From contig OZ316891.1 in NCBI GenBank assembly GCA_973895155.1, positions 32,437,208 to 32,501,207 of the forward strand: a DNA stretch of 64,000 nt, in the 5' to 3' direction. The stretch comes from Marsupella aquatica (lineage: Eukaryota; Plantae; Marchantiophyta). The translations under genes were made by a program, and so were the position numbers. Shown here piece by piece: positions 1-59,522 of the stretch; the stretch's first letter is position 1, and each line of letters starts with the position of its first letter. The notes beneath the pieces are model-generated. The model did not search any database, had not been told where the DNA came from, and saw only the letters and a program-made list of their open reading frames with translations.

Positions 1-1934
1 GAGAAACTGAGAAATGCTCCATCATTTGTGGCAGCATACCGGGTGTCCCGAGAGATTGTTGTGTGGTGGCAATCAGGAAACTGTGTCCCCGGAAAGCTGA
101 AGATGCTGCAAAGCTGGATATCTTGGTGGGTTGTTTGCTGGCGCCAGTGGGGCAATTTTATTCAAGTGGTAAGGCATCCATCTATCTAGACTGTAATGTT
201 CATCAACTTCATATTAGCGCCAGGCGCTGGTTATTTTCTCCATACACGTCAAAACAAGTAGTACAAGAAATTGAAGCCAATATGTAGTTAGAATTCAGTA
301 TTAAACATTGAAATTGTATTTCAGGCCTGTTCTACATATTTATGTTGCCAGCGCCGGGCGCTGGTAATAGAATACTACTTACGGTTGACATTTTTGTATG
401 GCAGAGCAAAAGCGCTGAGGAAGGTGCCTTGATCCCCAACTGTACAGGGTCAGAATCAAGGCATGCGTCCATGAAAGCCTCGGCTACAAAGAAAAAGGTC
501 GGTCTTTATGAAGCTTGCGAAGTTGACCAAAACCATGCTCTGTCTCAAGTTGCCGGATACAGTGCATACCGTAAAGGCTTGAACCGGGGGAAGGGGCCAA
601 CTATATGGGAATTGGCGTTCCATTCCGCCGATCAAGCAGGTTCGCCAAGATTGTTTGAAGAAGCGACTAATATGCTTCTATCTAACGCAGCAGAATTCGA
701 TTTGGAAAGAAGTACTCCCCTGAATGGAGATATAATGACGAAGTCAATGAAGAGGAAGGGACATGCAACTGGGACTGTCTCTCCACAAGATTCCCATCGG
801 CATGACACCGTTCTAATAACCACACCAAATACTCGTGGTTTGAAAAGGAAGAACCTGAACAGATCTGACTTTTCTTCTATTCCCTCAAGTTCTGATCATC
901 CTGTCACAAAGGCGGTGAATCTCTCAGGTATGGTCACATCAGAGAGTGATACTGATTCACTGGACTATACTCCTCAAACAACCCAAACAACAAGATCCTC
1001 AAAACCTCCGCTCAGTGCCCCAGCAGCACTTCAGAATCAACTTCCACGCACGATTGTGCTAGAGAAGGATGTCCCTCCGGGGCAGTGGCAGTTGCAATGG
1101 ACATCGAAGTATGGAGCAGGTCTGCAATGCAATGGTACACTGAATGGGAGTTTGGATCGCGATGAGTGTCGAAATCGTATCAAGAAGGTTGGCTTCCATT
1201 CGTCTGAAGGTGTTGTCGGAATTGTCGTGAAGGGCCATCGTCTCTTCAGGGGCGAACCCGTCTCCGAAATGATTTGGTTTTGCCCAAACCAAGCGTGTTA
1301 CAAGAGTCATCCGCGTCGTGGTGTTCAGAAGCTTCCTCCTTTTCCTGACATTTTGCCTGTTCTGAAGGGTACGAGCCTGTCTCCTTCTGAAATTACATTC
1401 TTGGAAGAGCAAGGACTTGTCTTAGCACGAACAACAAGATTGAGTCGATCTGCGCCATCTGCTTTTGACCTCAGGATAAATGTTAACGTGTTCCCAGAAA
1501 CAATAAGGTTTTTGGAGCCAAATCTCCGACTTGGTAGTCGGAATGGGAGGAACTCAAGGCCTCGGTCTAATCTCACTGTGGGTCACACAAAGCGAATGGA
1601 GTCTGCACGACAAGAAGTGATGAGTTTGGATGGGGAATGGAATGTTCAGACCGGAAATGCTTTTGGAAAGCAATTTCGAATTCGAACCCATGAGAACCAT
1701 CGATCACCAAGCACATACTTTGTCCAAATCTGTATCTTCCCCGCTTGCTCTTGTGAAGACTTCTTCCTCCGACATTCGCGTGGCAAGTCGTACATGCCTT
1801 GCAAACATCTATACTGGGTGTACATAAATGTTTTCAAACTTGAGATTGAGGAGTCGACTCTTTGTAGCCAACCTATTTTGACTTTAGGCGAAGTCAGGCT
1901 TGTGCTGGAGAGGCAGAACTTGAATGGCTTATGA
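1..1934 (+). CDS. MULE-like transposase, C-terminal part (exon 1-168, intron 169-404, exon 405-1934) with SWIM zinc finger
   Basis: PNCTGSESRHASMK resembles the MULE TNNxxESxHxxLK catalytic-Glu motif. C-terminal CSCEDF...CKHLYWV is a SWIM finger (CxC-x(n)-CxH). The GTAAGG...GCAG intron is at the same position as in the paralog (17758-17968). Confidence 0.7.
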
Positions 1935-2649
1935 GAGAGATCGAAACTGCCCAACAGGTCGTCGTTCAATATAACGGTTATTCCCTATTTTGTCTTTTTC
2001 CAACAGATATTTTAGTTGTTTTATTGAGACTTTGTTGGTTAGCGTCGGGCGCTGGTTCTAGGAAACCGGATATTCATTGCTTCATTATGTACGTGCATTG
2101 TGGAAGAATGACCTCTTGTTTTATTTAAAATTTGTAAGTTGATTAAATTGTCTACTGTCTTCAAAGCCTCGAGGATGTGATTTGTCATTTGTTTGTGACG
2201 TTTGAAGGTCCATTTAATCAACTCCTTTAGATTGGGTTGATTTGGACTCCACGATTGACATGTGCTATGGTGGGTCCCACTCTAAGGGTCACTATTTGGC
2301 GATGAAAATAGATTGATTTGCATGAATGTTTCTTTAGGCACACTCCTAATACCATGTTTTTTATCTTCTACAATAAATTGTTGTGTCAATGGAGGATTGA
2401 TAGTACACTTCATCCATCAAATGGCACAAAATAATTGTTTGTTTTAAACTTTATTGCCCCCCAAAAAATTATGCCATTAGAGTGGTGGATATGCACCTTA
2501 GAGTGGTGGATATGCACGTTATGGTTCAGGCAAAACTGGTAACAGGGACAAGCTTACTGGTAACAGGTACAATTTCCCTGTTAACAGAAAATAAACCCTT
2601 GGTAACAGGTTTTCTGTTTTCTGTTTTCTGTCATGGCTATCATACCCCC
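1..2649 (+). mobile_element. Mutator-like DNA transposon, family M copy 1 (right end only)
   Basis: Carries the 3' part of the transposase. It ends in ...TTTTCTGTTTTCTGTTTTCTGTCATGGCTATCATACCCCC, whose reverse complement resembles the left terminus of copy 3 at 19461 (GGGGGATCTCTCCGTGACAGCAAATAGCAAACAG). Three TAGCGCCNGGCGCTA-type palindromes at 215, 349 and 2040. Confidence 0.7.
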
Positions 2650-10523: not shown

Positions 10524-11215
10524 TCCTATGACAGTAAGCATACGTATAGACCTATGCGCACCATAGCGCTAGGCCCTGTGTGTACGGGCCCAATATGAAG
10601 ACCCCTTCTCACCAGAACTATCATGAGCGCAGACCTGATCCCCAACCTTGGTTCCTTGGGATTGAGCTTGGGTGATGTGTGATAGAGTCTGGCTATGATC
10701 TAGGCTGGTGTTAAGGGCATAAATTGGTGTTTACCGGCCTTCACAACATCCCTTCGTGATCCTCAGGTACAAGGAGATGTTTTTGGTGTTAAGACCCATG
10801 TCAATCGCGTGACAATTCACATGCCCAGTCTTGCAAGCAATTCTTGGGAATGGTTTGTTGGGCCTCCCGCAAAGCACACTGTAACATCCCCACTGCAATC
10901 CCCTCTTGTCACGCGATTGACATGGGTCTTAACACCAAAATAGTCACTATGGGTGCCAAAACCATCTCCTTGTACCTGAGGATCACGAAGGGATGTTGTG
11001 AAGGCCTCTAAACACCAATTTATGCCCTTAACACCAGACTATCATAGCAAGACTCTATCACACATCACCCAAGCTCAATCCCAAGGAACCAAGGTTGGGG
11101 ATCAGGTCTGCGCTCATGATAGTTCTGGTGAGAAGGGGTCTTCATATTGGGCCCGTACACACAGGGCCTAGCGCTATGGTGCGCATAGGTCTATACGTAT
11201 GCTTACTGTCATAGG
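10524..11215. repeat. Long inverted repeat, ~300-bp arms (10524-10815 / 10906-11215), ~90-bp spacer
   Basis: The arms are near-perfect reverse complements, for example CCTATGACAGTAAGCATACG... versus ...CGTATGCTTACTGTCATAGG. Confidence 0.9.
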
Positions 11216-13358: not shown

Positions 13359-14837
13359 CCTCTACATTGTTCCACGTAATCCAGGTATGACACCACTGTT
13401 TTACTAGATCATCATTCACGCTGTTCGGATGGAAGAATTGCCTTCGGAGCTCAGGATTGCAATGGGCAATAAGCAAAGTACTCCTGAGCTTGGGGTCGAG
13501 TGCGGAAACAGCAGTAAAAAGCCTGGCTTGGTCCATTGTACACAAGACGGTATCAGGTTTCTTCTCTTGCTTATTTCTCTCCGTCACAGCATACATTTAT
13601 GCGCACGTAGATAGAAAGTCCTCAAATTCAGGACTCAACAAAGGAGTGATTTTTGATGTTTTCACTGCCCAGTCCTTGGTGGCCTCCTTCATCATTATGG
13701 CATGCCTTGTGGAAACCTCCTCGGCCGACCAGGGGATACCTAGGGCCGCAGCGGACTCCATGTCTAGCTTGAATTGGTTAGAATATGATTTAATTTTATT
13801 CTCACATAGAATATAGACAAGAGCCTCTTGAGGCATCTTCTTCGTGTACCAGGATCCTTTCCGCGTCTTCAGCCTGATCTGCTCAATCTTCTTATAATTG
13901 GCAGGGTCGATGAGCTTACTATAGTACTCCAGGTCGTGAATCAAAATCCTCTTGATTCGATCTGCATCAAGGATCCATGACGGTTTGACCAAGGCTTGTC
14001 CAAGCCTGAAGGAAAACAAAGGAATTAGAAAAACATTCAAGCAGCGCCGGGCGCTCGTAAAACAATTCCTCTTAGAGATATGCTATAAAGAACAACTTAC
14101 TAGTTCACGGTGTGGATCACCGCTTCAATTTCAATCAGTGAACCCTTGTCCCCATTGAAGACAGTACAAAGCACTTGCGGGTGGTATTTTGGGTTTTCTG
14201 GATTCTCCTTAGTGACAAGCGTCCAGGAGTACAACCGATGGTTCTCGTCAAAAATTGAGAACATCTTATCCTTCAGAACAAGAAAATTGGGGTCTGCCGC
14301 ACATTCTTCCTCGAACTTTTTGTTTTCGGATATCCATATTGGATCCCAAGTATCATGAATTTCCTGTGTGCAAGTGAGCGTCACTCCCTCAGCGTCCGCC
14401 GGCTGAACATAAAACCTCATTCCTATCGACAAATTGTATCCCATACTACGAAAAGAGTCTTTCAACTTGTCAATGGAGGAGCTATCTTTCTGCAAAGTGC
14501 GGACGACCTCCATGTGCACCAACCAACACAGCAGAATCCTAGGAGGCTCCTTGTTAAACCCTCGGAAATCCTTCCCAAAGAACATGACATGTTTTGAAAT
14601 AAGGTCGGTCTTCGAGAATGAGACATCTCCGATTGCAAATGTGTCAACATTCTCCATCATTTTTCATGTCGGCTTCGGAAACAAATTACTTGATACGGGA
14701 ACAAGTGATGCGCTTGACCTCGTCACTCGACGTGTATACACCAAACCTGAAAATGAAGACTTAGAAGACTCGCAATAGCCATGATCACGATCCCCCACAA
14801 CACTATACCCCCTCGACGAGGAGGGGACTGCATCCAT
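13359..14837 (-). pseudogene. ParB-like domain protein (N-terminal half of the ParB-MTase gene), intron 14006-14100
   Basis: KDKMFSIFDENHRLYSW (DGNHR in the paralog). Collinear with 22138-23980. Several in-frame stops; truncated by LTR B. Confidence 0.7.
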
Positions 14838-15153
14838 CGTCTCCCGCGATGAGTGTTGTACGAACGGTCGTACACTACAATTCTCACGATTGAGTACTGA
14901 ATCTCCGTACCAAATTAACAATTGATGGAGTACTATACCCGATTGATCAGTGCTATCTCCCTTGATGTAATCTATTTAAGAGACGTTACGATGAAATTGG
15001 GTATTAGTTATTGTTAAAACAAAGCGACAATCTAAGAACTGTGAAAGATATTAATGTAGAATCCGCTAAACTGTTTTTGTGAAGATCACGCTAACCGTAG
15101 TTACCGTTAAATATTACCGTTGACCAGACTACTAAAACTTGGTAATGCAATGC

Positions 15154-15543
15154 TAGCGTCGGGCGCTAGTAAAATTTTAACCACATTGGTCATACAGTTT
15201 AATGTGTTCAATAGATAGCGCCCGATGCTACCCATTCCGTGGTCTATTAAAGGTTATGTTTTTGTCATAGTTTAGGCAAATGTTTTTGGAAATGAAGAAC
15301 TTTAGGACGTAGGAAGTTTAATTTTGTTCACATTTGGTCCTTAAATATGGTGTACCAATACTAGCGCCCGGCGCTAGTACATGTATCCCTAAATGGTGCC
15401 TAAATTTGGATGATATTGCATGTTTAGATACAAAAAAGTAGACTTATTGGTGTCCACTGTAATGCTAGCGCCCGACGCTAGTCTGCTGTGTGACTGGATT
15501 CTAACCTTATAAATCCTGGAATTTTTGGTAGCGCCAGGCGCTG
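15154..15543. repeat. Cluster of five 15-bp palindromes TAGCGCCNGGCGCTA between the divergent genes
   Basis: Copies at 15154, 15216, 15362, 15466 and 15529, separated by unique AT-rich DNA. Confidence 0.9.
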
Positions 15544-15775
15544 TTGAAATCATGTGAATTATCTTGGCCTATATGTGTTCATTTTGACACAAAAAAATAT
15601 CCCTGACACCCGCACTTAACGGGGCAAAAGGACAAACTCTACATTTATGATTTCAACGGACACAATTCTATGTCATATTCAAACTACTTTTATAACGGTC
15701 AGTCATCTTCATGCATTAGTATAAGCATTCCATTTGGGAGGAATTTGCTTTGTTGATTCCTTCATTTTCTCCACA

Positions 15776-18700
15776 ATGTCTTGCTCAATTGTAATTACAT
15801 GTGCTTGTACTGGAGACGTCGTCAACATCCCCGTGCAAGTCTCTGATGCTTACAAGCAAGTTAGTGAAACCTACCTTGGGAGATTTGATTTGAGGATGAA
15901 TGATATTGAGTCCATTGTTCCACAGGAATCGACGAGTGGAGAACTTCAACGGGCTGCGGCATTCGATGTAGATGAGGGAGTACACTTTTGGCATATGAAT
16001 GCCGGGCTTAGTTACACGCTTAATGTCAGACGTGTCACTCCGGAACCAGCAGTTGGGAACATTCCTGTTGTTGTTGTTGACATATCTGACAATGAAGATG
16101 GTGATGTTGCACCCACTCCTCCTTCGCAGTACAAAGTTCCGGTTTCTGCTTTTGTTAAGGATGAGCCGGTGGCTACCTCCGGAGTTGGTCATAAAGTCTA
16201 CCGGAGGAGTGCGATGGACGCCTTACTCAAGGCCACGGGACATAGTGAACTGTCAAGATTTATCTTGGCATGGGACTTCCGGCATGAGCAAGTTCCTTGT
16301 TTGCCAGACAAGTACAACGGAAATGTTGTATTTGAACTGCCTCCCATTGAGGGAACGCTCTCCAAGGGATCTAGACTTCGTGACATGGACCGTGCCAAAG
16401 ATTGTTACATTTGGACCCAAATTTTTCCAACAACTGCAAACGTGCATCCAAAGAAACATTGGGAATTTGGTAAGGTTACGTGTACCGGGTTCATCAAGTG
16501 CAGGAACAAGTCCTGTGAGTACTTTCAGCGAAAGAAGAGATGCAATGCAAAGGCCTGGCATGGTGCTCCTAAACTCAGTGGCCAACACGTGGTGGGTTTG
16601 TTGATTGAAGAGGGTGGTGTAGTCTGTCACTATTGTGCGTAGATTCCTTTCTGTGTGAAGTCTTGCCCTGCTCGCTTGTTTTATATGTACCCTCAAGTCC
16701 TTCTTGATACAAAGACCTGTAGTCACATGTCTCGGCTCGCAGTTCATATAGGTGAGCATAACCATCCAAGTAGGAAAGTTTTCTCGAGGAGCGCTGAGAA
16801 GATAGCTGAGGATTTGATAAGAAAAAATCATGAAGCCAATCCTCTAGCAAAGCCGCCTGGTATTTTGAATTCCGCAACCGGTTCGCTCGTGAAAGCTCTT
16901 TGCAAAAACGTCAACAACATAGTAGATATTGAAGAAACGGAGATTTGGAAGTCTCTCATGGTACTGTCTACCCCCCAGAAATTTGCATCGCTTTGTCAAA
17001 GCGTTTGAATGGACCAGGCTGGTCATGGTAGTTAGATTTCCTAGCTCGGATGCAAAAATCAAATAACATTTCTTTCCTCCAAAGGTACCTCCTATCGGGT
17101 CAAGGTTGTGTAGCAGATAGGCCCCATATATTCAAAATGACAGTCAAGGGTCATGGATCTGGTGTAGATCTTCTCCGGCAAATGCAACCTGGCGGAAGAT
17201 TGGAAGGAGCTTGGGTGAGTTTTGATGTGATGAAGCGAGTGACAACCGACTGGTTTACTTTCAGTGCACACGTTTACAATCACAACTTCCGAGCTCTTTG
17301 TACAATCTTCACATGCGAACTAAAAGCTGAAGACACGGAGTCCTTTGAGAAAGCGTGGAGAATTATGATTGAGGTTTGTAAGGAAAATGGGTTACAAGAC
17401 GTTGTCATTCAAGGTTTTATGGCTGACAATGCTCAGGCTGGATGGATCGCCGTTCGCAATATCTTTTTTGGAGGGCACCTAGACCCTGAACGTGAACGCT
17501 CTGATGCATTTCACTTTTACCAGTCGTTCCATCGACACTCTACAGAAAGAGTTTTGGAGGGTAAGCAACCAGAACATCGACAACTATGAGAGAAATTGCG
17601 GAATGCTCCAACGTTTGTTGCGGCGTATCGAGTTTCGAGGGAGATTGTGTTATGGTGGCAAGCGGGAAATTGTGTCCCAGGAAAGCTGATGATGTTGCAG
17701 AGTTGGATATCTTGGTGGGTTGTTTGATGGCGTCAGTGGGGGAATTTCATTTGTGTGGTAAGTTTTCCTGATGCGTTTATTAGTCAAACCTCAGTGTGTT
17801 TATACTAGCGCCAGGCGCTACTTTAATTTTCACTCAGAAAACCTTCAAACTTTACAGAAAATGAAACTTTTACCGATAAACCTTCTTTTATTATCTCCTA
17901 CTCATTGCTAGCGCTTGGCGCTGCTTATACAAAAGAAGTAAATTTTGTCTGAACGGGTTTTATTGCAGAGCAAAAGTGCAGAAGAAGGTGCGCTCATTCC
18001 AAACTATACCGGGTCAGAGTCAAGGCACGCCTCCATGAAAGCATGGGCTACCAAAAAAATGGTGGGTCTCTTTGAAGCATGCAAAGTTGATCAAAATCGA
18101 GCTTTGTCACAAGTTGCGGGTTACAGCGCATATCGGAAGGGACTCAATAGAGGGAAGGGGCCAACTATCTGGGAATTAGCATTTTGATCCGCAGACCAAT
18201 CTGGTTCACCCAAGTTATTTGAAGAAGCAACCAACATGATTCTTTCAAACGCTGTTGATTTGGATCTGGAGAGGAGCTCTCCTCTGAATGGAGATATTGT
18301 CACAAAGTCGGTTAAGAGGAAGGGACTCGCAACTGGGATTGTCTCGCCACAAGACTCCCATCGGCATGACACCATTCTCATCACTACACCAAATACTCGA
18401 GGGTTCAAACGGAAGAATCTCAACAACACTGCCTTCACTTCCTTTCCTGCAAATGTAACAGATCCCATAGTCGACATCGGCGGTAGCAACACTTCAACGA
18501 ATGGAAGTGATTCCCTCGCAAACACCCCTGAAGCCAGAGGAACAACAACATCGTCGCAACCCCCACTCAGTGCTCCGGCTGTTCTTCAACATTTGCCGAC
18601 AGAGTCAACTCCTTTGGAAATGGACGTTCCTAGAGGGACCTGGCATTTGTGGCGGACGGCCAAATATGGGGCAGGGCCTCAGTGCAATGGGACTTTGCAT

Positions 18701-19460
18701 GGAAATTCTGAGAGGGATGAGTGTCGAAATCGTGTGAAAAAAGTCGGGTTCCATTCGGCAGCAGGTGTTGTCGGCATTGTTGTCAGCGGACATCGCATTT
18801 TTAGAGGCACACCCATTGCAAAAATGATATGGTTCTGCCCAAACAAAACATGCTACAAGAGCCGCCCGCGTCGTGGTGTTGAATGCCTTCCTCCTATGCC
18901 GGATATCTTGCCAGTTGTGAAAGGGACCAACCTGTCACCTGCCGAGGTAGAGTTCCTTGAAGCACAGGGAGTCTCGATGGTCCAAACAGTTGCGACGTCT
19001 CGCGCTGCACTTGTTCCATTTGACTTGAGAATTAATGTAAACGCATTTACTGAAAGAATCAATTTTGCCGATCCCAACGTACGCCTTCGGACCAGGAATG
19101 GGAGAAACTCCCTCGGGGGTTTCACTTCCACAAAAATGGCATATCACGTGCGACGAAGGATAGGGTCATTTTATTGGTTCTAAGAGAAGACTTAAGAATT
19201 TTTGTAGAAGAACAATAGGGTCTTTTAAATTCAATTTTGAGACTTATAAGAACATTAGGGTCGTTTTAATCCAAAATTTGGAATATTCCAAGAATATTCC
19301 AACTTTATAGGGGTTAAAAAATTAAAAAAATTCTCACATTTTAGGGGGTCCGAGGCCTAAAAACGTCGGAGGTGATGGGGAGGTCCCCATATAGTGAGAC
19401 CCCCGAGGAAACTCCAGACCTCGATCAAATCTAACACTGGCTCACAGTACACGAATGGAG
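15776..19460 (+). pseudogene. MULE-like transposase with N-terminal GCM/WRKY-like Zn domain; intron 17758-17968; stops and a MITE insertion
   Basis: Cys/His-rich region CTGFIKCRNKSC...CHYC...C...HIGEHNHP. DDE-like motifs WVSFDVMKR, FMADNAQA, DAFH (CxxH position) and PNYTGSESRHASMK. Paralog of 1-1934 and 26273-27422. Confidence 0.7.
19112..19407. mobile_element. MITE, 296 bp, 8-bp TSD GAAACTCC
   Basis: TIRs CTCGGGGGTTTCACT / AGTGAGACCCCCGAG, with TSDs at 19104-19111 and 19408-19415. Removing it restores GRNSRPRSNLT, as in the paralog. Confidence 0.9.
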
Positions 19461-20219
19461 GGGGGATCTCTCCGTGACAGCAAATAGCAAACAGCAAACA
19501 GTAAACAGCAAACAGCAAAACTCATACCAGCAAATGTGCACCCAAAAAAAGTCACCGAAGGGTATGAAAATATTGTCACATATATTGGACGTGAAGCGGC
19601 CATTGAGTACATTTATACTAGCGTCGGGCGCTATAAGGAAAAAACCAAATAAAAACCTCTTTGAAATACCGGCTACAGTAATAGCCCCGGGCGCTACTCC
19701 AATCCGACACGTCAGGGCGTTCTTATTGAGTATCGTCGTTCTCCATAAACGGGTAAATAAAACAAGGAGAACTAAAGACCAGATCCACAACCACCACTCG
19801 ACTCTGAGTCCGATTCAGAGCCGCTACTTTCTGATCTATCAGTGGACTCTGCTTTGTCGTCCACATACTTGGATTTTGCAATATCATCTACGAAGTGATT
19901 CTGCACAAACTTTCTATCTGAGCCTCTCTTGAGTCTAAGACCCTTACTCTACCAAGTAAGCGTCCTGACTGAATCTGCCCGTCGTGCCGCCTTTTCAGCA
20001 TAAGAGGGGAGAACAAATGGCTTCTCCGGGGTCTGTACAACGTTCCTAGAGACGTTCCTTCGAAGTTGAAAATGCCTCCGAAGATTCCACTCTAACCTGA
20101 GAATTTGAACTGGAGTTCTTTAGTCGAAGTCGGGAAATCGGGCGAATTTTCTAGACATAAGGGAGTAGAGGAGTTCTTTGGAAAAAAGTATACAACAAGA
20201 GAAAGAAAGCTAAAGAAAA

Positions 20220-23200
20220 TTACTCTTCTGACTCTTCACTGTCCTCATCTCCAGATCCAAGGTCCACCACATTCTTCGACACCTCATCATCTTTAGATTG
20301 CTGAGAAGCATTGCCACCCTCATCCTCGTCTTCTGAATCAAAATTTAGAATAGCAAGGAGCCTGTCCTGCTTCTTACTTCCAGGAATCTTCTTAGGAGGA
20401 GTTGGTGCAACCACTTCTTTGTTCTATAAAAGATCGAGGAAGACCTTACCGGAAGTATCAACAAACTCTGGACGATTTTCCAGCCCAACAACAAAGCGAC
20501 CAGAATAATCTCCAGCCACAAACGTACTACCGGAACCTACTGTCCAGTCCATAACGATATCTCCAGGAAGAGTCACCAATTCCAAAATAGTTTGCATGAA
20601 ACCCACAGGCAATCGTGAATTTCCTGCAAATTGGAGCTCAGGAGTCGGGTCATGTCGCGGCAACAAAAACCCAATAATGTTAGTGACGGAAGGGTCTTCT
20701 TCATTCGATAGTGGCCGGAACTTGGGGTCTTTCGGGACCCTTCCCTTTGTCAAAATGCGGCAAAATATATTAAGAGTAAGTGTGAATATCTGCAACACAG
20801 TTTCCCAATGAAGGCAGTATAAGAAAACAGACACATATATTAGCGCTTGGCGCTAGTCAACCATTCATCCTTACAAAAGATAAGTGAATTGTAGATATTG
20901 CGAATGCTGATAGTAGCGTCGGGCGCTAGTATGTGCAAGAGGAATTGTTACCTGAGTATCAGATCGGGGCCTATACATTGGTGTAGTCATGACCACATGG
21001 TGGGTTGAAATACACTGGAAACACTTAGAATCCTGGCAAGCCGCAATCACTTCAGATACCTGATCATAGTCTCCTCTGTGTAAAATTGCAAGTAGGCCAT
21101 CGTCTGCAAGGAACGGCTCCATGGCTCGGAAGAAAGAGCTGGGAATAGTGTAATCCTGAAGGTTCCACTTGGGAACCTTCCGATCAAGAAGTGTTGGTTT
21201 TAACCCAGTGGGAATGTAGATGAAACCAGCATCCACACCAAAGCCCCTCTCTTTTCCGCCACGCATTACTCCCTTCTCTCTGTCTCCTGACTTTACCAAT
21301 TCCTTTCCCCAGGCCTCAACTTTAGTAACCCACATGGGCTTCATCCCCTTGTTAAATACCAAATTGTAAAATTCGTTTAAATTGGACTCCACAAAATAGT
21401 GTCTAGAACACCTTCGCTTAAAATTCCCGACATCTCTCTGGAGTCCACAGGAAATAATGTCTCGAGTAGATGATGCTGCTCTGTCCTCACCGGCGCCTCT
21501 CTTTTTCTTTTTCTTCGTGCTAGTTGCGTCAAGAGGGACAATGGATTTTCCAGCACCATCCGGGGTCCCTTGATCCGGGGTTTCTTGAGCTCCAGTGTTT
21601 GCCTCCGATGCCTAAGGAGTTGCATCATTCTTCCCTTCGGCAGCCGGGACCTCCGTGTCGGACTTTCAACCTCCTGTTAGGCACAAAAACTTGAATGAGT
21701 CCAACCTTTCAGACTAGCGCCAGGCGCTATTAATCAAAGGAATTTCCAAATGAAACTCCTGCATAAGCAGCGCCAACAAGTAACCAAAAAGCGCTTAGAC
21801 TACTGACTTTTCTTGAAGGACCTTGTGGAGTCACTTGGTGCAGCTGACTCATTCTTCGCCTTTCCTCTTGGCTTACGGCTTCGGTCAACGTGCATGACAA
21901 GAGACTCACAATTCTTCTGTAACTCAGATGCAGATTCGTCAACATCAGACTAGAGACCTTGCTTCATTGTAGACACATAGTTGGTAGGGATCTGGGACTT
22001 TTGCAACTTCATGAAGGCATCCTTCTCAGCTTTGTCGAACGGTAAATCCCATTTGTCTGTGTCGAGGTACCAGGGACAGTGAAGTCTCTCCCACTCCGAC
22101 AATGATCGTGGTGGAAACTTTCCCTCCGCTGGGTACATCAATACAGGTCGGCAAGAGCGTCTCCATCTTTGATAGACACCCATTTCTGAAATGCAGCCGG
22201 GTATGCCCATAGAGTGTCAGGAGATCTAAGCTCCATCCACATGTAAAACCGGTATAGATATCGTTTGGCTCTCTTCCGGTTCCGCTCTGTGTAATCTTCC
22301 TTGTCCACATATTTGGAAGACCACAAGTTGTTGAAGAATTTTGCCTTGACAAGATCCCCAAAGTTTCTGAATTCATCGAGAATGATCTTAAGCATGGCCT
22401 CCATTGACTCACACCCAGACTTTGTGAGACGGTCAGCCGGCATCCGGTCAGAAATCTGTTTGAAGGAAGTGTGAAGCATTCCAGTTGCAATTCCCTCCAC
22501 AGAATTCCAAGTATGCCATGTATGGCACCACTGCTTCACAGGCTCGTCGTTGACACTTGCAAGATGGAAAAACTGTTTCCGAATCTCGGGAGTGCAGTGG
22601 GCTACTAGAAGGGTGCACCTCAATTTTGGATCCAGGTATGAAACAACAGTAAACAACCTGGCTCGATCCATTGTGCATACAACTATGTCTGGCTTCTTCT
22701 CCCGTTTGTTCTTCTCAGTTACGGGATACATCTCAGCACAGGTTCCCAAATAATCTCCAAAATCCGGATGAAGTAAAGGGGTGATCTTCGTCACTTTGAT
22801 CGACCAATCTTTGGTCGCCTCCTTCATCATTGCCTCATGCCTCTTTGTGGTCTCCTCTTCTGACCAAGAAGCCCCTTGAGCTTTGGCTAAAGCCATATCA
22901 GACTTAAATTGATTTGAGTAAGACTTGATTTTGTCCACACACAGAATGTAGATGAGAGCATCCTGTGGCATTTTATGTGTAAACCAAGACCCCTTTCTCG
23001 TCTTCTTTTGGATTGCCTCAAACTTTGCCATGTTCGCGCTGTCGATTAGTGGCTTATAGTGATCAAGATCACGCGACAGAATTTGGGAAATTCTGTCCGC
23101 GTCAAGAATCCAGGAAGGCTCGACGACTGCTTGTCCAAGCCTGGATGCAATGAAAAGGAATTAGTAGCGCTGGGCGCTAGCAAAAATTGGGGAATGAACA

Positions 23201-23980
23201 CTTTCGCAAAGCATGTTTGGTCCAAAATGAATGACAAGGGTAACAACAGTTAATGAACAGAACTTACTGGTTCACGGTGTGCATTGCCGCCTCGAGCTCA
23301 ACTAGTGAACCTCTGTCACCATTGTAAATGACGCAAATCACACGAGGATGATACTTCAAGTTGTCCGGATTCTCCCTCGTGACGATTGACCACGAGTACA
23401 ATCGATGATTTCCGTCAAACACACAAAACATTTTATCTTTTAGAATATGGAACGCTGGGTCCGCATCACACTCTTCCTCAAACTTGTTGTTCTCTGCGAC
23501 CCAGATTGGATCCCAAGAGTCCCGGATCTCGCTGGTGCATATCTGAGAAACCCCGTCGGCATTTGCAGGCTGAACATAGAAAGGCATCCCAATGCGCGAG
23601 TTGTACCCGATGACACGGAATGATTCTTTCAACTTCTTGATCGATGAACTTTCTTTCTGTAATGTTCGAACAACCTCCATGGGGAGCAATCTACAAAGAG
23701 GAATTTGAGGTGGCTCCTTATCGAGTCCTCGAAAATCCTTCCTGAATGACAATGCGTGCTTTGATATTACCTCGTCCATCGATAAGCCTATGTCACTGAC
23801 TTCACCCATGGAGACCTCCTTAGGGTCCATTCTCCCTCTCCTCGACCTCGGGAAGGGCTGTGCAGATTCAGCTTCGGAAGTCGATAGGGACGCAGTCGAT
23901 CGAGTGACGCGACGGGTGTATACTGAACCAGCGAACAAAGATTGAGAGGACTCAGAATGACCACCATCAGCCTCCCCCAT
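20220..23980 (-). pseudogene. ParB-like domain + DNA amino-methyltransferase-like fusion; introns about 23141-23267, 21673-21808, 20790-20951
   Basis: FCVFDGNHRLYSW is the ParB/Srx GxHR motif. ELVTLPGDIVMDWTVGSGSTFVAG...VVGLE is a beta-class MTase SAM-binding motif I. GT/AG splice sites are present; there are frameshifts and stops. The 3' end is approximate. Confidence 0.7.
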
Positions 23981-24367
23981 TCTCGTATCACCTAGCCAAA
24001 AGTTTCCGTGGAGAGTGACTCGACCACCCGGCACTGTCGTACGCGCCGTGCAGTTCTTGTGACGATCACGTCTCAAAATGTACGGGACCAATAAAGGATG
24101 CACATATGCACTTGACAAACTCATACAATCTGAGGTCTGAGCGCATAGACGGACTAAATTATCCCAAATGAGCAATCTCCACCTCGTATTAAACACCGAT
24201 ACAATAGAACCAGCCATTCGAGTACAACGGTCCCAAGTACAGATGGCATTATCCGATTGGACTTTCATCCCAGATAAAAGCAAAAAGGGTTCCGTGAACC
24301 TCAATCTACTATAATATTACCGTTGGAAAGTGACCGTTGTAACCACATCAGTGTCGATAGTTGTGGA

Positions 24368-24749
24368 TAGCGCCAGGCGCTATTATTCAACATACTTTCA
24401 AATGTAGCTACGGGCAGTAATATCAACACAATTGTGAAGGTATCGACAAGCCAACTGTATTAGCGCTCGGCGCTAGTATTCAAATAAATGATGACATCCG
24501 AGTCCAATGACAACAACATGACCACATGAACCCATTCATTCAACGAATATTCCAATGAATTACAATAGCGCCTGGCGCTATTAAAATGCACATCAATTAA
24601 ACAGAATTTGTTGAAATAAAAGTAGAAATAACTCCTGCCTTGTGATTCCTTTCATTAATAGCGCCCAACGCTATCAAAAACACTTTAGAGATAAGACTTG
24701 TCATGACAGGGTTACGGACACTTTTTTCTCATAATAGCGCCAGACGCTA
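24368..24749. repeat. Cluster of five 15-bp palindromes upstream of the ParB-MTase gene
   Basis: Copies at 24368, 24461, 24566, 24659 and 24735. Confidence 0.9.
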
Positions 24750-24899
24750 GTAAAAACATTGACAGCAAACGTGTGTTTCAAAGAAATAGATCATGTACGC
24801 ATTCAGAAATACAATGCAAACACGGGAGTAGAACCGGAAATTTAGGCTTGGTCTTCTAAATTCAAAATCAATGACACCGAGGTAAAAACGAACGGCTAT

Positions 24900-25492
24900 G
24901 CCGTTCATATACAAAATGTTACATTACACTAGAAATTCGGCATACGATGAAGGAACCGTATGGGTTTTCTATCGGAAGAAAAGAGTGAAAACAAATCCTA
25001 TCAACCTCGGTGGATCCTCCAAGTCTCTCCAGCACTCAAACGATACGCTCTGACAACGTGAAATCAGTCTTCCCACCAACTTGGCTTGTACGCATCGGAG
25101 TCGTCATTCGAATCGCTCGATCCATACCACGCAAATCCTCGCCTGCTCGGTGATGAGTCCCCGCTCGAAGAATGATCACTCTCAGTAGATGAAGAAGATA
25201 CGGAGACTCTCGTGCAGATAGTGTCGGCTCTTGGACGGCCGACTGAAGCAGTGGCGATATCCCTAGCGGGAACAGAAGTTGGGCCGCTCGTATTTGGCCG
25301 ACTGGATCCTTTGCTGCGGCCCACAGTTGGGACATTCTTTGTCTTTGAGATGAGTTTCCCCTTCTTTGAGATTGGAACCGTTGTCCTCTCGGCATTCAAC
25401 CAAGGCGGTAAGCTATTTGATACGGGGGTCTCCCGGTCTGTGTCACTCGGGGGAAGTGCCTCCTCCTTTGCCTTCCCTCGTGGAGGTACCAT
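24900..25492 (-). pseudogene. Possible small Ser-rich accessory ORF in family M copy 3
   Basis: MVPPRGKAKEE...SSSSTESDHSSSGDSS...YKPSWWED, then stops; no recognisable domain. Confidence 0.3.
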
Positions 25493-25953
25493 TGAAAGTG
25501 AGGAAGAGGACGACAAAAAGAAGCGCGAACGAGAATGTGAAGGAGGACAACAGCGTGAACTAGGACGAGAATGAGAAACAAGGATGAGAAGGAGAACAAT
25601 AACGCGCACGAAAGCCAAAAAGAACAACTGGGCCCGAAAGTGATAACGGGAACCACGCGCCCGAAAGATGAGGCACAACTGCGACTCAATCAAGAATGGC
25701 TTGACAATGAGGACATCCGAGGGGAACGACTAGATATAAGGAGAGTTCGCACTTGGTCCTGGGTACCCACTTCAAAGAGGCCCCTCTGATATAACTTTCG
25801 TGGACGCTTCCTCTCTGACACATTTGGACCCGGGCGGATCGGATTCACGAAGATCCAGTGGAGATCTTCAAGCGTGCCAACTTAATTACTCGTACTGTAT
25901 CACGTTATTGTACTTATCCTTCCATTGAATGTTTTCAAGTCCATTGAAATAGG

Positions 25954-26097
25954 TAGCGCCAGGCGCTATTATTTATTGCCTTCGTACTCCTCACCCAAGA
26001 ATGTTTGCACCCAGAGGTAGCACCAGGCGCTATTATTATTGGCATTTGTAGTCCTCACCCAAGAGTGTTTTACACTTAGAGGTAGCGCCAGGCGCTA
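25954..26097. repeat. ~65-bp tandem repeat x3, each unit carrying the 15-bp palindrome, upstream of the transposase
   Basis: Palindromes at 25954, 26018 and 26083; shared TCCTCACCCAAGA...AGAGG context. Confidence 0.85.
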
Positions 26098-26272
26098 GTA
26101 ACTATGAACCCGAATCCTGCCGTTGGTAAGACGACAAAACGTCATTGATGGAGTGCGTCCAAATCCACAACAACTCTATAATGAGAATCGAACGTTTACT
26201 TCTCGTACTCGGATCTCATGATAAACATATTTCATTTCGCGCGGGGCAAATGCATATCCCTCTTTTGAAGCC

Positions 26273-27422
26273 ATGGCTCAAAATATCGTTGTCACGAGGA
26301 AGGACACTCGGGATGTAATCACAATTCCCGTCCTTGAATCATCTGAATCAAAGCGTGTTTCAGAGGAATATTTGGGAGTGAGATTTGATGTCCCCAAGGA
26401 GTCTATTTTAGCAATCTCGTTAGTGTCGGTTTGTTTGGGGGAGACTCCAGTTTTCTACGATGTTGTTCATGGTCAAAGATATTGGACTCTGGAGGCTCCG
26501 AAAGAATATGAGGTTTTTGTTTTGAGAGATTTTGGGGCCTCCTATACTCGTCCTCCCACAGCGGCTAAACTCGATGTCATCAAACTCTCGGAAAGTTCTG
26601 GAGATGATAAGCAAGCGACAACTACTCTCGGAGAGAAGATTCCACTTTACCCATTCGAGGTTAAAAAGGAGTCTAATGCGGATTGAGAAAAGATTGGGCC
26701 TTTGAATGTGTACCGGCAGAGTGCAATGGATACAATCTTGAAATCCAAAGGTCATAGTGAATTGTCTCGGTTTATAAGGGGGAGTGATTTTGTTCATCAT
26801 GTAGTGCCTAGTCTTCCCACATCTTACAATGGGAATGTGGTTTTTGAGTTACCCCCTGTAGACTGTGTGAACGCAAAAGGTGAACGTTTGAAAGATATGG
26901 ATCGTGGTAAGGATTGTTATTATTGGACTCGGATTGTAAAAACGTCTTCAAATGTTCTTCCAAAGAAAATGTGGGATTTCGGGAAAGTCCAGTGTATGGG
27001 ATCGCTGCAATGTCGAAATAATGCTTGTCCGTGGTGGAAAGACAACAAGTTTTGAAATAATGAGATGTGGGCAAGAACCCCAAAACTTTCGGGCCCATTC
27101 CGAGTTGGGGAATTGATCTCCGAAGGTGGAGTTGTTTGTCACCATTGCTCCGAACCTCCGATGTGCGTTGAGGCCTGCCCTGCTCTAATGTTCTACATGT
27201 ATCCATCTGCAAAAGTTGGCGTGAAGTCTTTGGCCTAGATGTCGTGACTAGCTGTTCATATGGGATTTCACAATCATCCCAGTCGACGGGTCTTTTTGAG
27301 GGAGGCAGAAAAGGTTGCAAGGTCTCATCTGGAGAAGGGATTCACTGCAAACCCCATGGCATCCCCAGCAGGGATTAAAAACTTTGCGACTGAGACACTG
27401 ACGAATACATTTTGCGAGGCCT
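26273..27422 (+). pseudogene. MULE-like transposase N-terminus (GCM/WRKY-like region), interrupted by LTR A
   Basis: YNGNVVFELPP...DMDRGKDCYYW...GKVQCMGSLQCRN...HMGFHNHPSR, homologous to 15776-17008; in-frame stops. Confidence 0.75.
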
Positions 27423-34788: not shown

Positions 34789-36281
34789 CTAAAATTCAAT
34801 CAATAAGTCACTGATCTCTTTCTCGAGCTCAGGTGCTAGGTTTCTCCCTAAGTTCAGTTCTCTTCCCTCTCCTAAGTCGAGCTTCCGATATTGCCGTGCT
34901 TGGATCATATTAATCTGCTTCTTCAAATTCGGGTCCAGTTCGGCTTCCAGTCTCTCTAATCTCATACCTCCATAAACTGGGATCTCGGCTGGACTAGCCG
35001 AGTTGGTCCCTTCCTTGGTGTCCATAGATTGTCCCCTTACCGGTCTATTCGGTTTTGAATTAGTGGTCGGCTCCCCTTCCTGCCTTGGCTCTGGATCGTG
35101 TCTGTCCATCTCATCCACCTCTTGCTCCTGAGAGTTAGGCCGCTGTGCTCTCTCGGCTTCTAATAGGGCCTCAATTTGTTCTGCCCTCGTAATCGGCTTG
35201 TATGCCGATCCCTTGGTATTTAATTCCTTGCCAATGATCGATGGCGTTGTGGACCCCGTCGGCTCTGCCACAACGCCTGCAGAAAATCCACTGTCCCTGC
35301 TACTGCTCCCCACTTAGCCGTCTCATCCAATTGGTCTACATCCTTAACTTCCTCCGGAATTGCAGCTAAAAAGGTGGATTCTATTGTAAAGCAGTCCTCG
35401 ACCTCTTCGTCTTCTTCTTCCAAGTCACCTTCCATTGGTTCTTGCCATAATCCGCTGGGGGGTACCTCTGGTCCAAAGACACCTTCTTCGGTTAGGTTAG
35501 TGAAGCATTCTAACCAACGTACTTCATCGGCTGACTCCAGTCCACTATCGTACCCATCTACTTCCCTTATGCTTTTCCTACGGTCATCCTTAGTGTCCCA
35601 GGATACCGTGATAGAGGGGGTCCCGAAAGTGAACTGCTTTTTACCCCAATCTTCTATTACCTCGGCTAGGTACAGCCATGGCCTACCAATCAATAGCCGG
35701 AATGACGTAGGATTTACCGGCTTCATTACTACATAGTTAATGCTAAAGAAGATACCTCCTATTTCTGTCTTGATGCCGGTTAACACTCCCGTCGGAATGA
35801 CCTGATATCCATTGGCCATGTTCAACACTCTTCCAGTCATCTCCGGTGTTAGACCCCACCCTTTTGTTGTTGAATCAATCATAATACATACCCCTGATCC
35901 TCCATCGATGGGTACCCGTAGTAATAATTCTCCTTGAATCATTAATGGTAATGCTGGGGCTCCTTGATCTTCTTCTATCATTAGTACGTCGGATCTGGTT
36001 GCTACCTTGGGTAATCTCGGCTTGCCGAGAATAGCCTTCCTTAATTGCTTCTGGAAGTACGGGCTATTTTTCAATAGTTGACCTACTGTTGCCGAGACTC
36101 TAGATTCTAGTACATCTTTAGCCAGGTCATAGGGAACAATCGGCTTCTCTTCTGGTGGTGTTTCCGTCTTGGATTCGGCCAGTTTTGCCACGCTAGTCTC
36201 CACAGCTGTTGGGTCTTCCGAAGCAAACAATGCTTTTGCTCGTTTTACATCCTTGGCAATGGCTTCGGTATTCTCCAGGGT
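34789..36281 (-). pseudogene. Gypsy aspartic protease region with a frameshift near 35300
   Basis: VPIDGGSGVCIM and LLIGRPWL retropepsin motifs; same frame as gag after the stop at 36282. Confidence 0.85.
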
Positions 36282-42772: not shown

Positions 42773-43419
42773 TACTTGGCGCTATGATGTTTCATGGTTG
42801 TTTTTCATTACGGTATTCAGTTTTGGGTAGCGCCTGGCGCTATGATGTTTTCACGTATGAGTTGATCGCTATGTTTGGGACCCTGGATGATTGAAAGTGA
42901 ACATTGCATTGGATTTAGAGAGTTTTTACCCATTGACTAGCCGGGTTATTAATGGAATATTCTCTTTGCACATGAAATTTTGGGATATATTGTTGACGTT
43001 TTGGTTGAAATATTTTCCTGTTTCCTTTTTGCTGTTTCCTATTTGGATTTTTCTGTTTCCTAGCACGGTGGTGATACCCAAAAAATAAGGACGGAGTTCC
43101 GATTTGGTTGAGGATATGTTTGAGTGGTTGTCTGCACTCTGTTAATTCTTCTTGTAATTATTGTCGTGATGCCCAAAACAAATATCATTGATTGGCATAT
43201 TTGTGTTGTCGAATTTGGAACGAAGATCCTTGGGTTAACTTATCGCGTTGAATCTTCTTGATTAGTGTTTAGGTGAACGTTCTTGGGTCAAAAATTTTGT
43301 GAATATATTTTTCTTTTGATCAAAGAAATAAAATCAGTTTTTCCATCACTATTTTGTAGGTTGCTGAGAAAGACCTCACCATCTCATTTATTACTCCAGG
43401 TATCCACTCTTATTTTGGA

Positions 43420-44486: not shown

Positions 44487-45031
44487 GTTGAATACGAGAT
44501 GGGATACCGCGTATCCCATCTCGCATCCAACACCCTCTTTTTTAGTATTCCATCGGAACCTCCTAGCTGTTTGTTGACTCTAAATACAAAATGGGATACC
44601 ACGTATCCCATTTCGGATTCAACTTTGTCTTTCAGTGCAGATTACTAGAAATTCCTGATGTTTAGGGTTTAGGGTCATTGGGGAGGATCGTTGCAAGAAG
44701 AGCCGCATTGGATGATGTTGGATACGAACCGGGATACCCCGTATCCCATTTTGCATTCAACTCCCTATTTTTCATTCTTTGAATCAGACTCCAAGCAACT
44801 GTTGATGTTGGATGCGAAGTGGGATACCGCGTATCCCATTTCGCATTCAACTCCCTATTTTTTGTTCTTTGCAACAAACTCTAGGCAATTGTTGATGTTG
44901 GATGCAAAGTGGGATACCGCGTATCCCATTTTGCATTCATTTCCCTATTTTATGTTCTTTGCATCAGACTCTAGGCAATTGTTGATGTTGGATGCAAAGC
45001 GGGATACCGCGTATCCGATCTCGCATTCAAC
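44487..45031. repeat. Array of six ~45-bp palindromes (core GGGATAC-N3-GTATCCC), the last four in a 90-bp tandem repeat
   Basis: Cores at 44501, 44593, 44731, 44821, 44911 and 45001; for example GTTGAATACGAGATGGGATAC-CGC-GTATCCCATCTCGCATCCAAC. Confidence 0.92.
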
Positions 45032-45084
45032 TACTTTTGAATGTTTACGCTCTTGTTCTTAGTGTGTCAATCTTTTACAGGAAC

Positions 45085-48000: not shown

Positions 48001-48663
48001 GTGATGAATGCCCTGGGAAAAACTTGTAACGTAGGTGTCAAGGCTGGAATTTGGGAGAAGCCAAATGTACATGCTCATCCTTCCGGGAATCGATTGGCTT
48101 GGGCTTTTGAAAACTGGTCAATCGGATATTATCACGAGAGTGGTATTAGGACCAGAGACATGTACAATTTTGAACATGATGAGAAAAGGGTAAACATCAT
48201 AAAAGTTCCTTGTGTTACAAAGAAATGTGTAACACCATTGTGGGAAATACTGAACCCTTACTAGAAGCCGATAGCTCTAGCAGATTGGTTCATTCAACAT
48301 TTTAGTGAAGTAGGGGATTGGGTTGCTGATTTATGTGCGGGGAGTGGTTCGACCTCATGCGCTGCCTTGTTAGGGAAACGTCCGATGACAGCCGTGGAGC
48401 TCAGTTCAAGCCAGGTGGATTGTATCCGGACCCGACTTGTCACGCTTGATGAATTGTGGGACTTGAATGATGAAGCAACCAATGAGGGTACAGGACCTAT
48501 GAGCTTCGAGGTTCAACCACCTATTGGTGGTACTACGAGCACCCTCACCACTGGAACTTGCATCATTACAATGGCGGAGGAGAACGACAATGATGAGGAT
48601 GAAGAGGATGAAGTGGAACATGAAGCTCCAACACTTGATCTTGGCTCATTCCTTGAGGTGTAG
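45085..48663 (+). pseudogene. ParB-like domain + beta-class N6-adenine/N4-cytosine DNA methyltransferase fusion; intron 47044-47553
   Basis: RYRVIGGNHG (ParB-like). MTase motifs: LHCGDV, YTLAIADIPYG (motif IV, DPPY-like), NPY*KP (HPTQKP-like, CAG>TAG) and GDWVADLCAGSGST...TAVE (motif I). In-frame stops near 46134, 46213 and 48264. Confidence 0.8.
47155..47470. repeat. Intronic 90-bp tandem repeat x4 carrying the GGGATAC-GGG-GTATCCC palindrome
   Basis: Cores at 47168, 47258, 47348 and 47438, inside the GTATGT...TTGCAG intron. Confidence 0.92.
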
Positions 48664-48745
48664 ACTTTAGTTTGATTAGTTCTCTCATGTTGTATCTATT
48701 GATCCAAACTTGTGAAATATTGAGGAAGATTATGATTGTCCGACT

Positions 48746-49198
48746 ATGTTCTTATTTCACAAAGTAATGTCTTTGCAGGAACCAAAGGTGGATTTTGTAT
48801 TGAAACATGTTCTACATAGATTCTCACACAATACTTCTAGTGGGTTTCTTTTGGATAATAAAATATTGAGCCAACTTGAACCCGGTCAATATTTGGGTGA
48901 TGAAATAATGGAATTTTACCCACAATTAATAACCAAGGAACATGGAGATCTGGCTCCCTCAGTAAACACATTATCCTTTTTTTTTTTACCCTTGGCTTGT
49001 TTCAAGGATTGAAATAGAACCAGCTGAGACCTTATTGGAATCAATTCAAAAGATGCAAAATTATTACAAGCCACTATTTTCCCAAATTGAGATCATTCTC
49101 ATGCCAATTCACATGAGCATGCACTGGAGTCTGGTTGTAATATGTTTGGATCGGATCGAATCTTTGATCAAAATGTATCATCTAGACTCTCTTGCCGG
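48746..49198 (+). pseudogene. Ulp1/SENP-like (C48) protease, truncated by an LTR insertion
   Basis: LEPGQYLGDEIMEFY and IILMPIHMSMHWSLVVI...YHLDSL contain the catalytic His and Asp; the Cys region is absent beyond the LTR junction. Confidence 0.75.
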
Positions 49199-50650: not shown

Positions 50651-50810
50651 CATACGTAATAGTCAAATTATTTAGTTACCCCGTAACAAAATATAAATCT
50701 AACCTATATACTTACTAATATACTTAGTGGTAATGATTTCATCATGAATAATTGAATTATCACGACATATCACTCCTACCAAACCTGTGCAACCTCCGAA
50801 TGCACCACAC

Positions 50811-58428: not shown

Positions 58429-58603
58429 CTAAAAACAAAGCAAACAATTGAAAGTTATATTGCAAAGAGAACACACACAAAAATGGGCTAGGGGTGTGCA
58501 AAAATGAAATAATATTGGTTGTGGTGCAAATACAAAATGTGGCCAAAGGCATATGTAGTGTCCTTTGATATACAACATACCACCTATGACCCTTAACTTA
58601 ACC

Positions 58604-59419: not shown

Positions 59420-59522
59420 CTATTCCACCGAAACCAAAACAAACAAAAGTAGGTGTGAAATTGCAAACCTTCAACCATTGAGTAATGGGAATAGGGTAGG
59501 AAAACTAAGGCATAACACTTAC

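Follow-up and report, generated by a model that had tools for sequence, protein, structure and literature searches.

A palindrome repeated in the noncoding DNA of liverwort Mutator-type transposons is a candidate binding site of their ParB-methylase accessory protein

Results

Nested family-M elements in the window

A stretch of 64,000 nt from the liverwort Marsupella aquatica (assembly GCA_973895155.1, contig OZ316891.1, positions 32,437,208 to 32,501,207 of the forward strand), here called the window, harbors members of a Mutator-type transposon family called family M. These elements combine a Mutator-like element (MULE) transposase gene with a divergently oriented accessory gene, which contains a ParB/sulfiredoxin (Srx)-type DGNHR motif and a methylase motif I, and a palindrome, TAGCGCCNGGCGCTA, is repeated in their noncoding DNA. 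Comparison of the window with itself, together with translation, revealed three family-M elements (A, B, and C) and one orphan end. The region from 13359 to 27422, considered a single element in the initial annotation, is a composite of element B, a miniature inverted-repeat transposable element (MITE) within B, and element C, which is inserted in the transposase of B. The features are as follows ("motif" denotes a TAGCGCCNGGCGCTA site; positions are those of the window).

1 to 2649, plus strand: element A, comprising the 3' part of a MULE-type transposase and a right end; intron at about 169 to 405, SWIM-like C terminus, stop at 1934; motifs at 215 and 349 (intron) and 2040 (3' noncoding DNA)
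13359 to 19460: element B, whole
13359 to 14700, minus strand: 5' part of the ParB-methylase gene of B, comprising the ParB and helical exons and cut off at 13359; intron 1 with motif at 14042
14701 to 15778: divergent spacer of B; five motifs, at 15154, 15216, 15362, 15466, and 15529
15779 to 19460, plus strand: decayed MULE-type transposase of B, with stops and a frameshift near 17029; intron at 17758 to 17969 with motifs at 17806 and 17909
19112 to 19407: unrelated high-depth MITE in the B transposase, 296 bp, CTCGGGGG ends, 8-bp terminal inverted repeat (TIR), 8-bp target duplication, no motif
19461 to 19700: left end of element C, GGGGGATC...TGACAG, of the type also seen at the ends 2649 and 43079; motifs at 19619 and 19682 (subterminal)
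19790 to 20090, minus strand: small open reading frame (ORF) or last exon, LPSYAE...FVDD, with one stop in the window copy
20220 to 23980, minus strand: accessory gene of C, encoding a predicted ParB/Srx-fold domain, a helical region, and a beta-class amino-methylase; introns at 23141 to 23267 (motif at 23165), about 21690 to 21810 (motif at 21715), and 20790 to 20951 (motifs at 20841 and 20914)
23981 to 26260: divergent region of C; eight motifs, five at 24368, 24461, 24566, 24659, and 24735, and three in a 64-bp tandem unit at 25954, 26018, and 26083
26261 to 27422, plus strand: 5' part of the transposase of C, 46 to 52% identical to B at the amino acid level, cut by a Ty3/gypsy long terminal repeat (LTR) element at 27423
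42782 to 43079: orphan family-M right end; motif at 42828, degenerate copy at 42770

The transposase of B was broken first by the MITE and then by element C. Every gene in the window copies of family M is interrupted by stops or frameshifts; in the accessory gene of C, a frameshift lies near 22200 and stops lie near 21950, 21610, and 20425. Three family-M ends are G-rich and of one type, and no copy keeps both of its ends. The sequences flanking 19461 and 43079 differ, and no two ends in the window stem from one insertion. The right end at 43079 is 73% identical to the left end of C over 59 bp. Because of this resemblance, the motif at 42828, which lies 250 bp inside the right end and had been regarded as the exception outside family M, was counted as a family member. 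Furthermore, sequencing contigs from all four runs contained thousands of variant pieces with 85 to 99% identity over the region, which fits a multicopy family, although depth does not equal copy number. A contig joint skipping 17758 to 17968 with GT..AG ends, detected in two of the four runs, was too short to count.

The small ORF at 19790 to 20090 has a counterpart (LPxYAE...FVDD, compared by eye) in several Riccia gene models and, on this sequence likeness, may form a third conserved component of the cassette. In addition, element C has a low-complexity ORF rich in Ser, Arg, and Lys (25064 to 25729, minus strand) that separates its two motif clusters and could represent either a 5' exon of the accessory gene or a gene of its own.

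The family-M transposase is likely a MULE transposase, as initially annotated. When Atlas features were used, MULE clusters ranked first for the transposase core (score, 0.94), and all 10 best hits belonged to the same family or clan. In the top three clusters, the MULE family was assigned to 12 to 18% of the members; Pfam MULE itself did not match the window transposases. By eye, D..D, DxxH, W, and E are visible in an order that we take to be the MULE pattern, and they are followed by a SWIM-like end, for which the Pfam match in element A had an E value of only 3.6. The transposases of A and B are 70% identical at the nucleotide level.

A 15-bp palindrome in the noncoding DNA of family M

The pattern TAGCGCCNGGCGCTA has 8 exact matches in the window. 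With up to two mismatches, 26 sites were found, compared to a mean of 0.05 after shuffling, and these are the 26 coordinates of the initial annotation, all of which are thus real. When a symmetric weight matrix was derived from the 26 sites, they scored 19 to 33 bits (weakest, 19.2) and the next site in the window scored 6.9, a separation that is partly circular. When exact spaced palindromes were counted over the window without bias, the TAGCGCCNGGCGCTA family ranked first, and together with the palindrome of a second gene (see below) it made up the top two. The palindrome can be extended loosely to 21 bp (TAcTAGCGCCNGGCGCTAgTA).

All 26 sites lie in noncoding DNA of the three nested, decayed elements and the orphan end. 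None falls into a coding exon as delimited here, which coding constraint by itself would also tend to produce. At least one site is present in every recognized family-M intron and spacer, including all three recognized introns of the accessory gene of C and the transposase intron. Twenty-two of the 26 sites are internal; subterminal copies are located 160 to 610 bp from three family-M ends, and the terminal 150 bp contain none. In line with the initial annotation, the motif is absent from the LTR and CACTA elements: at up to two mismatches, no site was found in the window's other repeats, which amount to about 47 kb. Allowing three mismatches added three sites (10564, 11162, and 36674), all in LTR-element DNA and within chance expectation (mean, 0.75; maximum, 4).

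The mismatches are unevenly distributed. Altogether, the sites contain 24 of them, 8 at positions 1/15, 3 at 5/11, 8 at 6/10, and 5 at 7/9. The AGC/GCT positions are free of mismatches (0/24; P = 1.5e-6 if uniform), although they include a CpG. Some copies arose by local duplication, as seen for the 64-bp unit at 25951 to 26097 and for the pair 42770 and 42828, but the flanks of most copies are unrelated.

Outside the window, exact motifs were present in 85 loci of viral contigs. When the flanks were examined with up to two mismatches, 79 of these loci had one site and 6 had two, and no clustering was detected; the match in viral locus L090 was attributed to chance. The motif was also absent, at up to four mismatches, from all four metagenome loci that encode relatives of the accessory gene, and an Rfam search gave no matches. 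A half-site at 38271, presumably the spot of an LTR primer-binding site, does not account for the palindromes.

The accessory protein

The ParB exon (exon 1) could not be assigned by sequence searches of Pfam, NCBIfam, PHROG, PADLOC, and PDB, which gave only weak hints, from DndB (3 of 80 members) and from a PHROG ParB profile (E = 0.095). Word-indexed homologue searches with exon 1, and with exon 2 among longer proteins, found none. An exhaustive search with exon 1 yielded 232 relatives at an E value of ≤0.001. Organisms were checked for 20 of the best 150 of these 232; the 14 that were named comprised 9 from Riccia sorocarpa and 5 from Adiantum. The relatives are full-length in Riccia and partial in Adiantum, and the long named ones are about 25 to 39% identical to the window protein. 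Riccia P0154 (1,207 amino acids [aa]) aligns with the window gene from the ParB exon through the methylase tail, which confirms the ParB-methylase fusion. Furthermore, the four short metagenome loci share an intron position with the window accessory gene. When P0154 was used in a tblastn search of phages, only its methylase tail was matched.

Structure prediction indicates that the first exon adopts a ParB/sulfiredoxin fold. Its model has a predicted local distance difference test (pLDDT) score of 92. Using an exhaustive structural aligner, 12 of 48,161 chains were retrieved at Z ≥ 2, and 11 of the 12 belong to the ParB/Srx superfamily, with KorB as the best match (Z = 7.2; root mean square deviation, 2.7; 92 residues aligned), with SspE, BrxU, and Atu1540 counted as members. 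The top Foldseek rows were nearly all ParB, Noc, sulfiredoxin, PadC, KorB, SbnI, or SerK, the first being a ParB-CDP structure (E = 0.049; probability, 0.99). The scores are middling, and the fold was called because the list of matches agrees. Among Atlas neighbors of exon 1 (23267 to 23830), the nearest cluster carried DUF3723 on 31% of its members, and ParB_N was found on 11%. The DUF3723 papers that were found concern mostly fungal Starship elements, a hint that ParB-fold accessory genes are common to very different giant transposons.

The putative phosphate-binding residues are conserved among the relatives: R55 in 63 of 70, G140 in 76 of 80, N141 in 79 of 80, H142 in 74 of 80, R143 in 67 of 80, and N187 in 61 of 65. 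By eye, the conserved Arg, GNHR, and Asn match the ParB phosphate-binding residues R60, R103/R104, and N136. The GERR CTP motif of ParB is not reproduced, since Asn (79/80) and His (74/80) stand at the positions of E102 and R103 of Caulobacter ParB (also aligned by eye). In addition, the ParB residues suggested to be catalytic are changed in the accessory protein or lack a mapped counterpart, and the same is true of the cytosine-specific ones. Judged from these residues, GNHR in place of GERR lowers membership in the ParB CTPases but not nucleoside triphosphate binding, and the domain likely binds a nucleotide. No ParA-like ORF was detected among the 29 window ORFs scanned.

The middle exon was modeled as all-helical (pLDDT, 74), with low confidence in its C-terminal third. 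The last exon matches PF01555 above the cutoff (E = 3.2e-8), and the family profile also matches CcrM and DpnA. Motif IV precedes motif I, and the S-adenosylmethionine (SAM)-binding motif I is kept, an arrangement of the beta class. Motif IV of element C is YIPT (at 21218) and not (D/S/N)PP(Y/F/W). Among 181 stored proteins, mostly ParB-only fragments, 23 matched the motif IV pattern; 22 of them, all from one Riccia species, have D-(L/M)-(P/S)-(S/T), and the remaining one, a fern protein, has DVPF. For the methylase N4CMT, the motif IV Tyr is modeled to stack on the target base, and an SPPY-to-APPA mutation is reported to abolish activity. Since the aromatic residue of motif IV is missing, the accessory methylase appears likely to be catalytically impaired, and self-methylation by the family-M protein would be unlikely. 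Thus, the proposed fold check of the protein encoded at 20220 to 23980 supported the ParB/Srx and methylase parts, while a helix-turn-helix (HTH) was not detected; the suggested epigenetic self-marking by N4-methylcytosine (4mC) or N6-methyladenine (6mA) is weakened by the degenerate motif IV.

Divergence of the elements and retention of the motif

Between B and C, the accessory protein is 66% identical in the ParB exon and 70% identical in the helical exon, compared to 48% for the transposase N terminus. In the accessory gene, the proportions of nonsynonymous (pN) and synonymous (pS) differences between B and C are 0.18 to 0.19 and 0.83 to 0.97, respectively, which shows that synonymous sites are saturated and that the gene has been under purifying selection. 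B and C have the motif in a matching accessory-gene intron, and the corresponding transposase introns of A and B each contain it twice. Moreover, 31 of 34 local matches between the spacers of B and C overlap a motif copy. Because the motif was kept in matching introns of elements with saturated synonymous sites, it is likely under selection.

With motifs masked, the observed/expected CpG ratio of family M is 0.64 to 0.78, compared to 0.29 to 0.60 for other elements in the window. This is a weak hint of reduced methylation similar to that caused by VANC (see Discussion), and it is confounded by element age.

A second gene with its own palindrome

A second gene in the window served as a comparison system.

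44487 to 48660 (gene, 45066 to 48660), plus strand: gene encoding a GGNHG ParB/Srx-type motif and a methylase with a DIPY motif IV

Its methylase was recognized by PHROG (E = 7e-13) and PF01555 (E = 1e-5), and the DIPY looks intact. Sequence searches gave no hit in support of its ParB assignment, and tblastn against phages found nothing for this gene. A palindrome with a 17-bp core, GGGATAC-N3-GTATCCC, occurs in six copies upstream (44501 to 45017) and in four copies in an intron (47168 to 47454), compared to 0.07 expected by chance; its arms extend imperfectly up to about 20 bp. An Ulp1 protease gene (48740 to 49600) follows directly. We considered and rejected the idea that the gene is part of the CACTA element, because the terminal-type repeats of the latter, at about 54030 to 54460 and 60720 to 60940, place it outside.

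A third palindrome, ATCTCGGC-N7-GCCGAGAT, occurs twice in the conserved intron (883 to 1025) of one metagenome locus (L002), compared to 0 of 500 shuffles in a test defined afterwards. A partial copy related to it is present in L003 (744 to 765). In the window, the coding region of a gypsy element has an 18/21 match to the L002 palindrome (34981 to 35005), which is probably due to chance.

Other features of the window

The CACTA element (54030 to 61000) encodes Transposase_21, DUF4218, and DUF4216, and contains a SET-domain ORF (58604 to 59419); TTGCGA-type repeats lie close to each of its ends. In the first gypsy copy, a 690-bp self-inverted segment (10525 to 11215; 84% identity) interrupts the pol region. 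A tandem array of an approximately 100-bp unit rich in TGCATGCA (50053 to 50654) separates the Ulp1 gene from the second gypsy element.

Discussion

We propose that the accessory protein of family M binds the TAGCGCCNGGCGCTA palindromes and sustains the activity of the element, in the manner of VANC in VANDAL elements. On balance, we consider this explanation probable. That the accessory protein is the binder, whether its methylase is active or not, we hold with more assurance. Between B and C, this protein has diverged less than the transposase N terminus, so that an unchanged site suits it as the binder.

According to the proposed mechanism, the accessory protein, probably as a dimer, would bind the palindromes; this is suggested by three unrelated settings (family M, the second gene, and L002), in each of which such a gene is accompanied by a palindrome of its own, different from the other two. 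The nucleotide-binding ParB domain could serve as a switch or as a spreading clamp, which would extend the effect of about 13 sites to an element of at least 10 kb. The output would be anti-silencing or transcriptional activation, so that, by analogy to VANC, the element would stay transcribed and less methylated. Judging from motif IV, the methylase module may be a DNA reader, a dimerization module, or a SAM sensor and not a writer. Beta-class methylases are described as dimers that read DNA by loops beside motif IV, and the site could be read by the helical middle or by the impaired methylase module. Spreading as a CTP clamp is a doubtful part of this model. The broader idea that land-plant transposons repeatedly domesticated a nucleotide-gated ParB clamp, with an own palindrome in each lineage, sliding, a silencing shield, and a dead methylase as the reader, is similarly tentative.

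Among the closest known systems, VANDAL elements have a similar layout: a MULE with an accessory gene and short motifs gathered in noncoding DNA. VANC is described as binding motifs in introns, intergenic DNA, and terminal DNA, with copies that stem partly from tandem duplication, and the account leaves open how its effect spreads over kilobases (PMC5735166). The VANC-like layout noted in the initial annotation, with motifs in introns, spacers, and subterminal DNA, was borne out. However, the VANC motifs are reported to be 8 to 9 bp long, nonpalindromic, and fast-diverging, while the family-M motif is palindromic (PMC5735166; PMC10398659). No VANC-type Pfam domain was found among the window proteins, and the function of VANC has been demonstrated, whereas the role of the family-M protein is proposed by analogy.

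The concept of such a self-binding protein is already in print, as a proposal, for Ectocarpus Sola1 and red-algal Plavaka elements. The Sola1-1_Ec32 element of Ectocarpus is described as encoding, opposite its transposase, a 1,104-aa protein with a ParB-like domain and an N4/N6 methylase, and it was proposed that this protein binds and modifies the element encoding it (PMC12477816). The likeness to the window gene, drawn from the published description, is that of a ParB-like domain fused to a nucleic-acid-modifying domain on a DNA transposon. The host is, however, a brown alga and the transposase is of the Sola type, whereas the window gene belongs to a MULE and has a degenerate motif IV. The main-text passages of that account, supplements aside, mention no palindrome (PMC12477816). 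In red algae, PAG3 of Plavaka (EnSpm) elements is reported to have a ParB-like domain and adjacent inverted-repeat arrays, and homologues of Plavaka accessory genes are described on Mutator elements of Chondrus as well (10.1101/2025.02.11.637652). PAG3 and PAG2 resemble the family-M gene in the N-terminal ParB-like domain, a PF01555 methylase in the same cassette, and the proposed self-binding. In contrast to the ParB-methylase fusion of family M, PAG3 is fused to a 2-oxoglutarate oxygenase, and the algal methylase (with SET) is a separate gene. The PAG3 repeats form tandem arrays beside the gene, whereas family M has single sites in each intron and spacer; the second gene of the window is closer to the PAG3 layout than family M is. 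According to the same report, VANDAL is the sole transposon for which binding and modification of its own sequence are known (10.1101/2025.02.11.637652). In mostly open-access literature, the supplements of the Bostrychia and Ectocarpus papers aside, we found neither a gene and palindrome of this kind in land-plant transposons nor a binding test.

The ParB-parS, KorB-OB, and Noc clamps share with the family-M system the N-terminal fold, a palindromic site of similar length, and, by eye, the Arg, G-x-x-R, and Asn residues (PMC8367383). Compared to the bacterial clamps (PMC8367383), the accessory protein has GNHR for GERR and no detected HTH, and no ParA-like ORF was seen among the 29 window ORFs scanned. 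A C-terminal methylase takes the place of the ParB dimerization domain, and the sites are scattered over a eukaryotic transposon. The methylase resembles CcrM, DpnA, rotifer N4CMT, and Marchantia DN4MT1 in the order of motifs IV and I and in PF01555, and it differs from all of them in the degenerate motif IV, the fusion to ParB, and the location on a transposon. ParB-HTH fusions to Dam methylases are reported from chlorophytes and chytrids (Iyer 2016, PMC4738411).

Several observations weigh against binding by the accessory protein in the manner of VANC. Unlike the fast-diverging VANC motifs, the palindrome is common to elements with transposases that are 46 to 71% identical. In the fold searches of the middle exon, with its low-confidence C-terminal third, only generic bundles were matched and no HTH or other known DNA-binding fold. 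Foldseek gave no match to the first exon at an E value of ≤0.001, and the best structural Z score is below 8. The support from the other palindromes is limited as well. The 10 copies of GGGATAC-N3-GTATCCC form two 90-bp tandem arrays and are not independent, and the ParB assignment of the second gene consists of one motif seen by eye, with an HHalign probability of 0.4%. Among the four metagenome loci, on contigs of 1.2 to 1.8 kb, a repeated palindrome was found in one and a partial one in another, while L001 and L004 had none; moreover, the two copies in L002 belong to a 48-nt duplication.

The strongest alternative, although an unlikely one, is that the palindromes are sites of the MULE transposase itself, bound by its N-terminal Cys/His domain for end pairing or activation, with the accessory gene as a passenger or a nonspecific partner. 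A Mutator transposase can act in this way: AtMu1c is described as binding motifs by itself, hypomethylating and activating its own family, and this too speaks against the accessory protein. The motifs 160 to 610 bp from three ends would suit such a role, and the window CACTA element has short end-proximal repeats of its own without a ParB gene. However, the AtMu1c peaks are reported at TIRs, in contrast to the predominantly internal family-M sites, and the motif remained unchanged between B and C while the transposase N terminus diverged more than the accessory protein did. In addition, the second palindrome family is confined to DNA beside and inside a gene with a ParB motif and a methylase.

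It is less probable still that the accessory protein binds the palindromes and uses an active methylase to write protective 4mC or 6mA on its own element. The beta-class domain order, the retained motif I, and the good conservation of the module among Riccia copies are compatible with activity, as are DVPF in the fern relative and DIPY in the second window gene, and the same mechanism was proposed for the Ectocarpus protein (PMC12477816). Against this stand YIPT in the window, the D-(L/M)-(P/S)-(S/T) of 22 of the 23 motif IV matches, and the dependence of N4CMT on motif IV.

Only a slight chance is left for a host transcription or chromatin factor whose site was gathered by family M to escape silencing. 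The retention of the motif over a large divergence of the elements is what a slowly evolving host factor would produce. Nevertheless, the motif is absent from the approximately 47 kb of other repeats, and different ParB-type genes come with different palindromes. To our knowledge, there is no plant factor with a TAGCGCCNGGCGCTA site. Finally, a functionless by-product of local duplication or a tiny mobile repeat is largely excluded: tandem duplication explains some copies, but the flanks of most are unrelated, AGC/GCT is invariant despite its CpG, there is no Rfam match, and copies persist in orthologous introns at synonymous saturation.

For the ParB-type accessory proteins of algal transposons, self-binding is so far a proposal only. 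Family M offers a sharply defined candidate site together with a protein to match, and full-length relatives of this protein are annotated in a liverwort. If binding by the accessory protein is true, a bacterial-type loading and spreading protein would be at work in plant chromatin, and the protein and its site could provide a tool for keeping transgenes active. If the clamp is true as well, family M would represent a eukaryotic spreading system of the ParB-parS type on chromatin.

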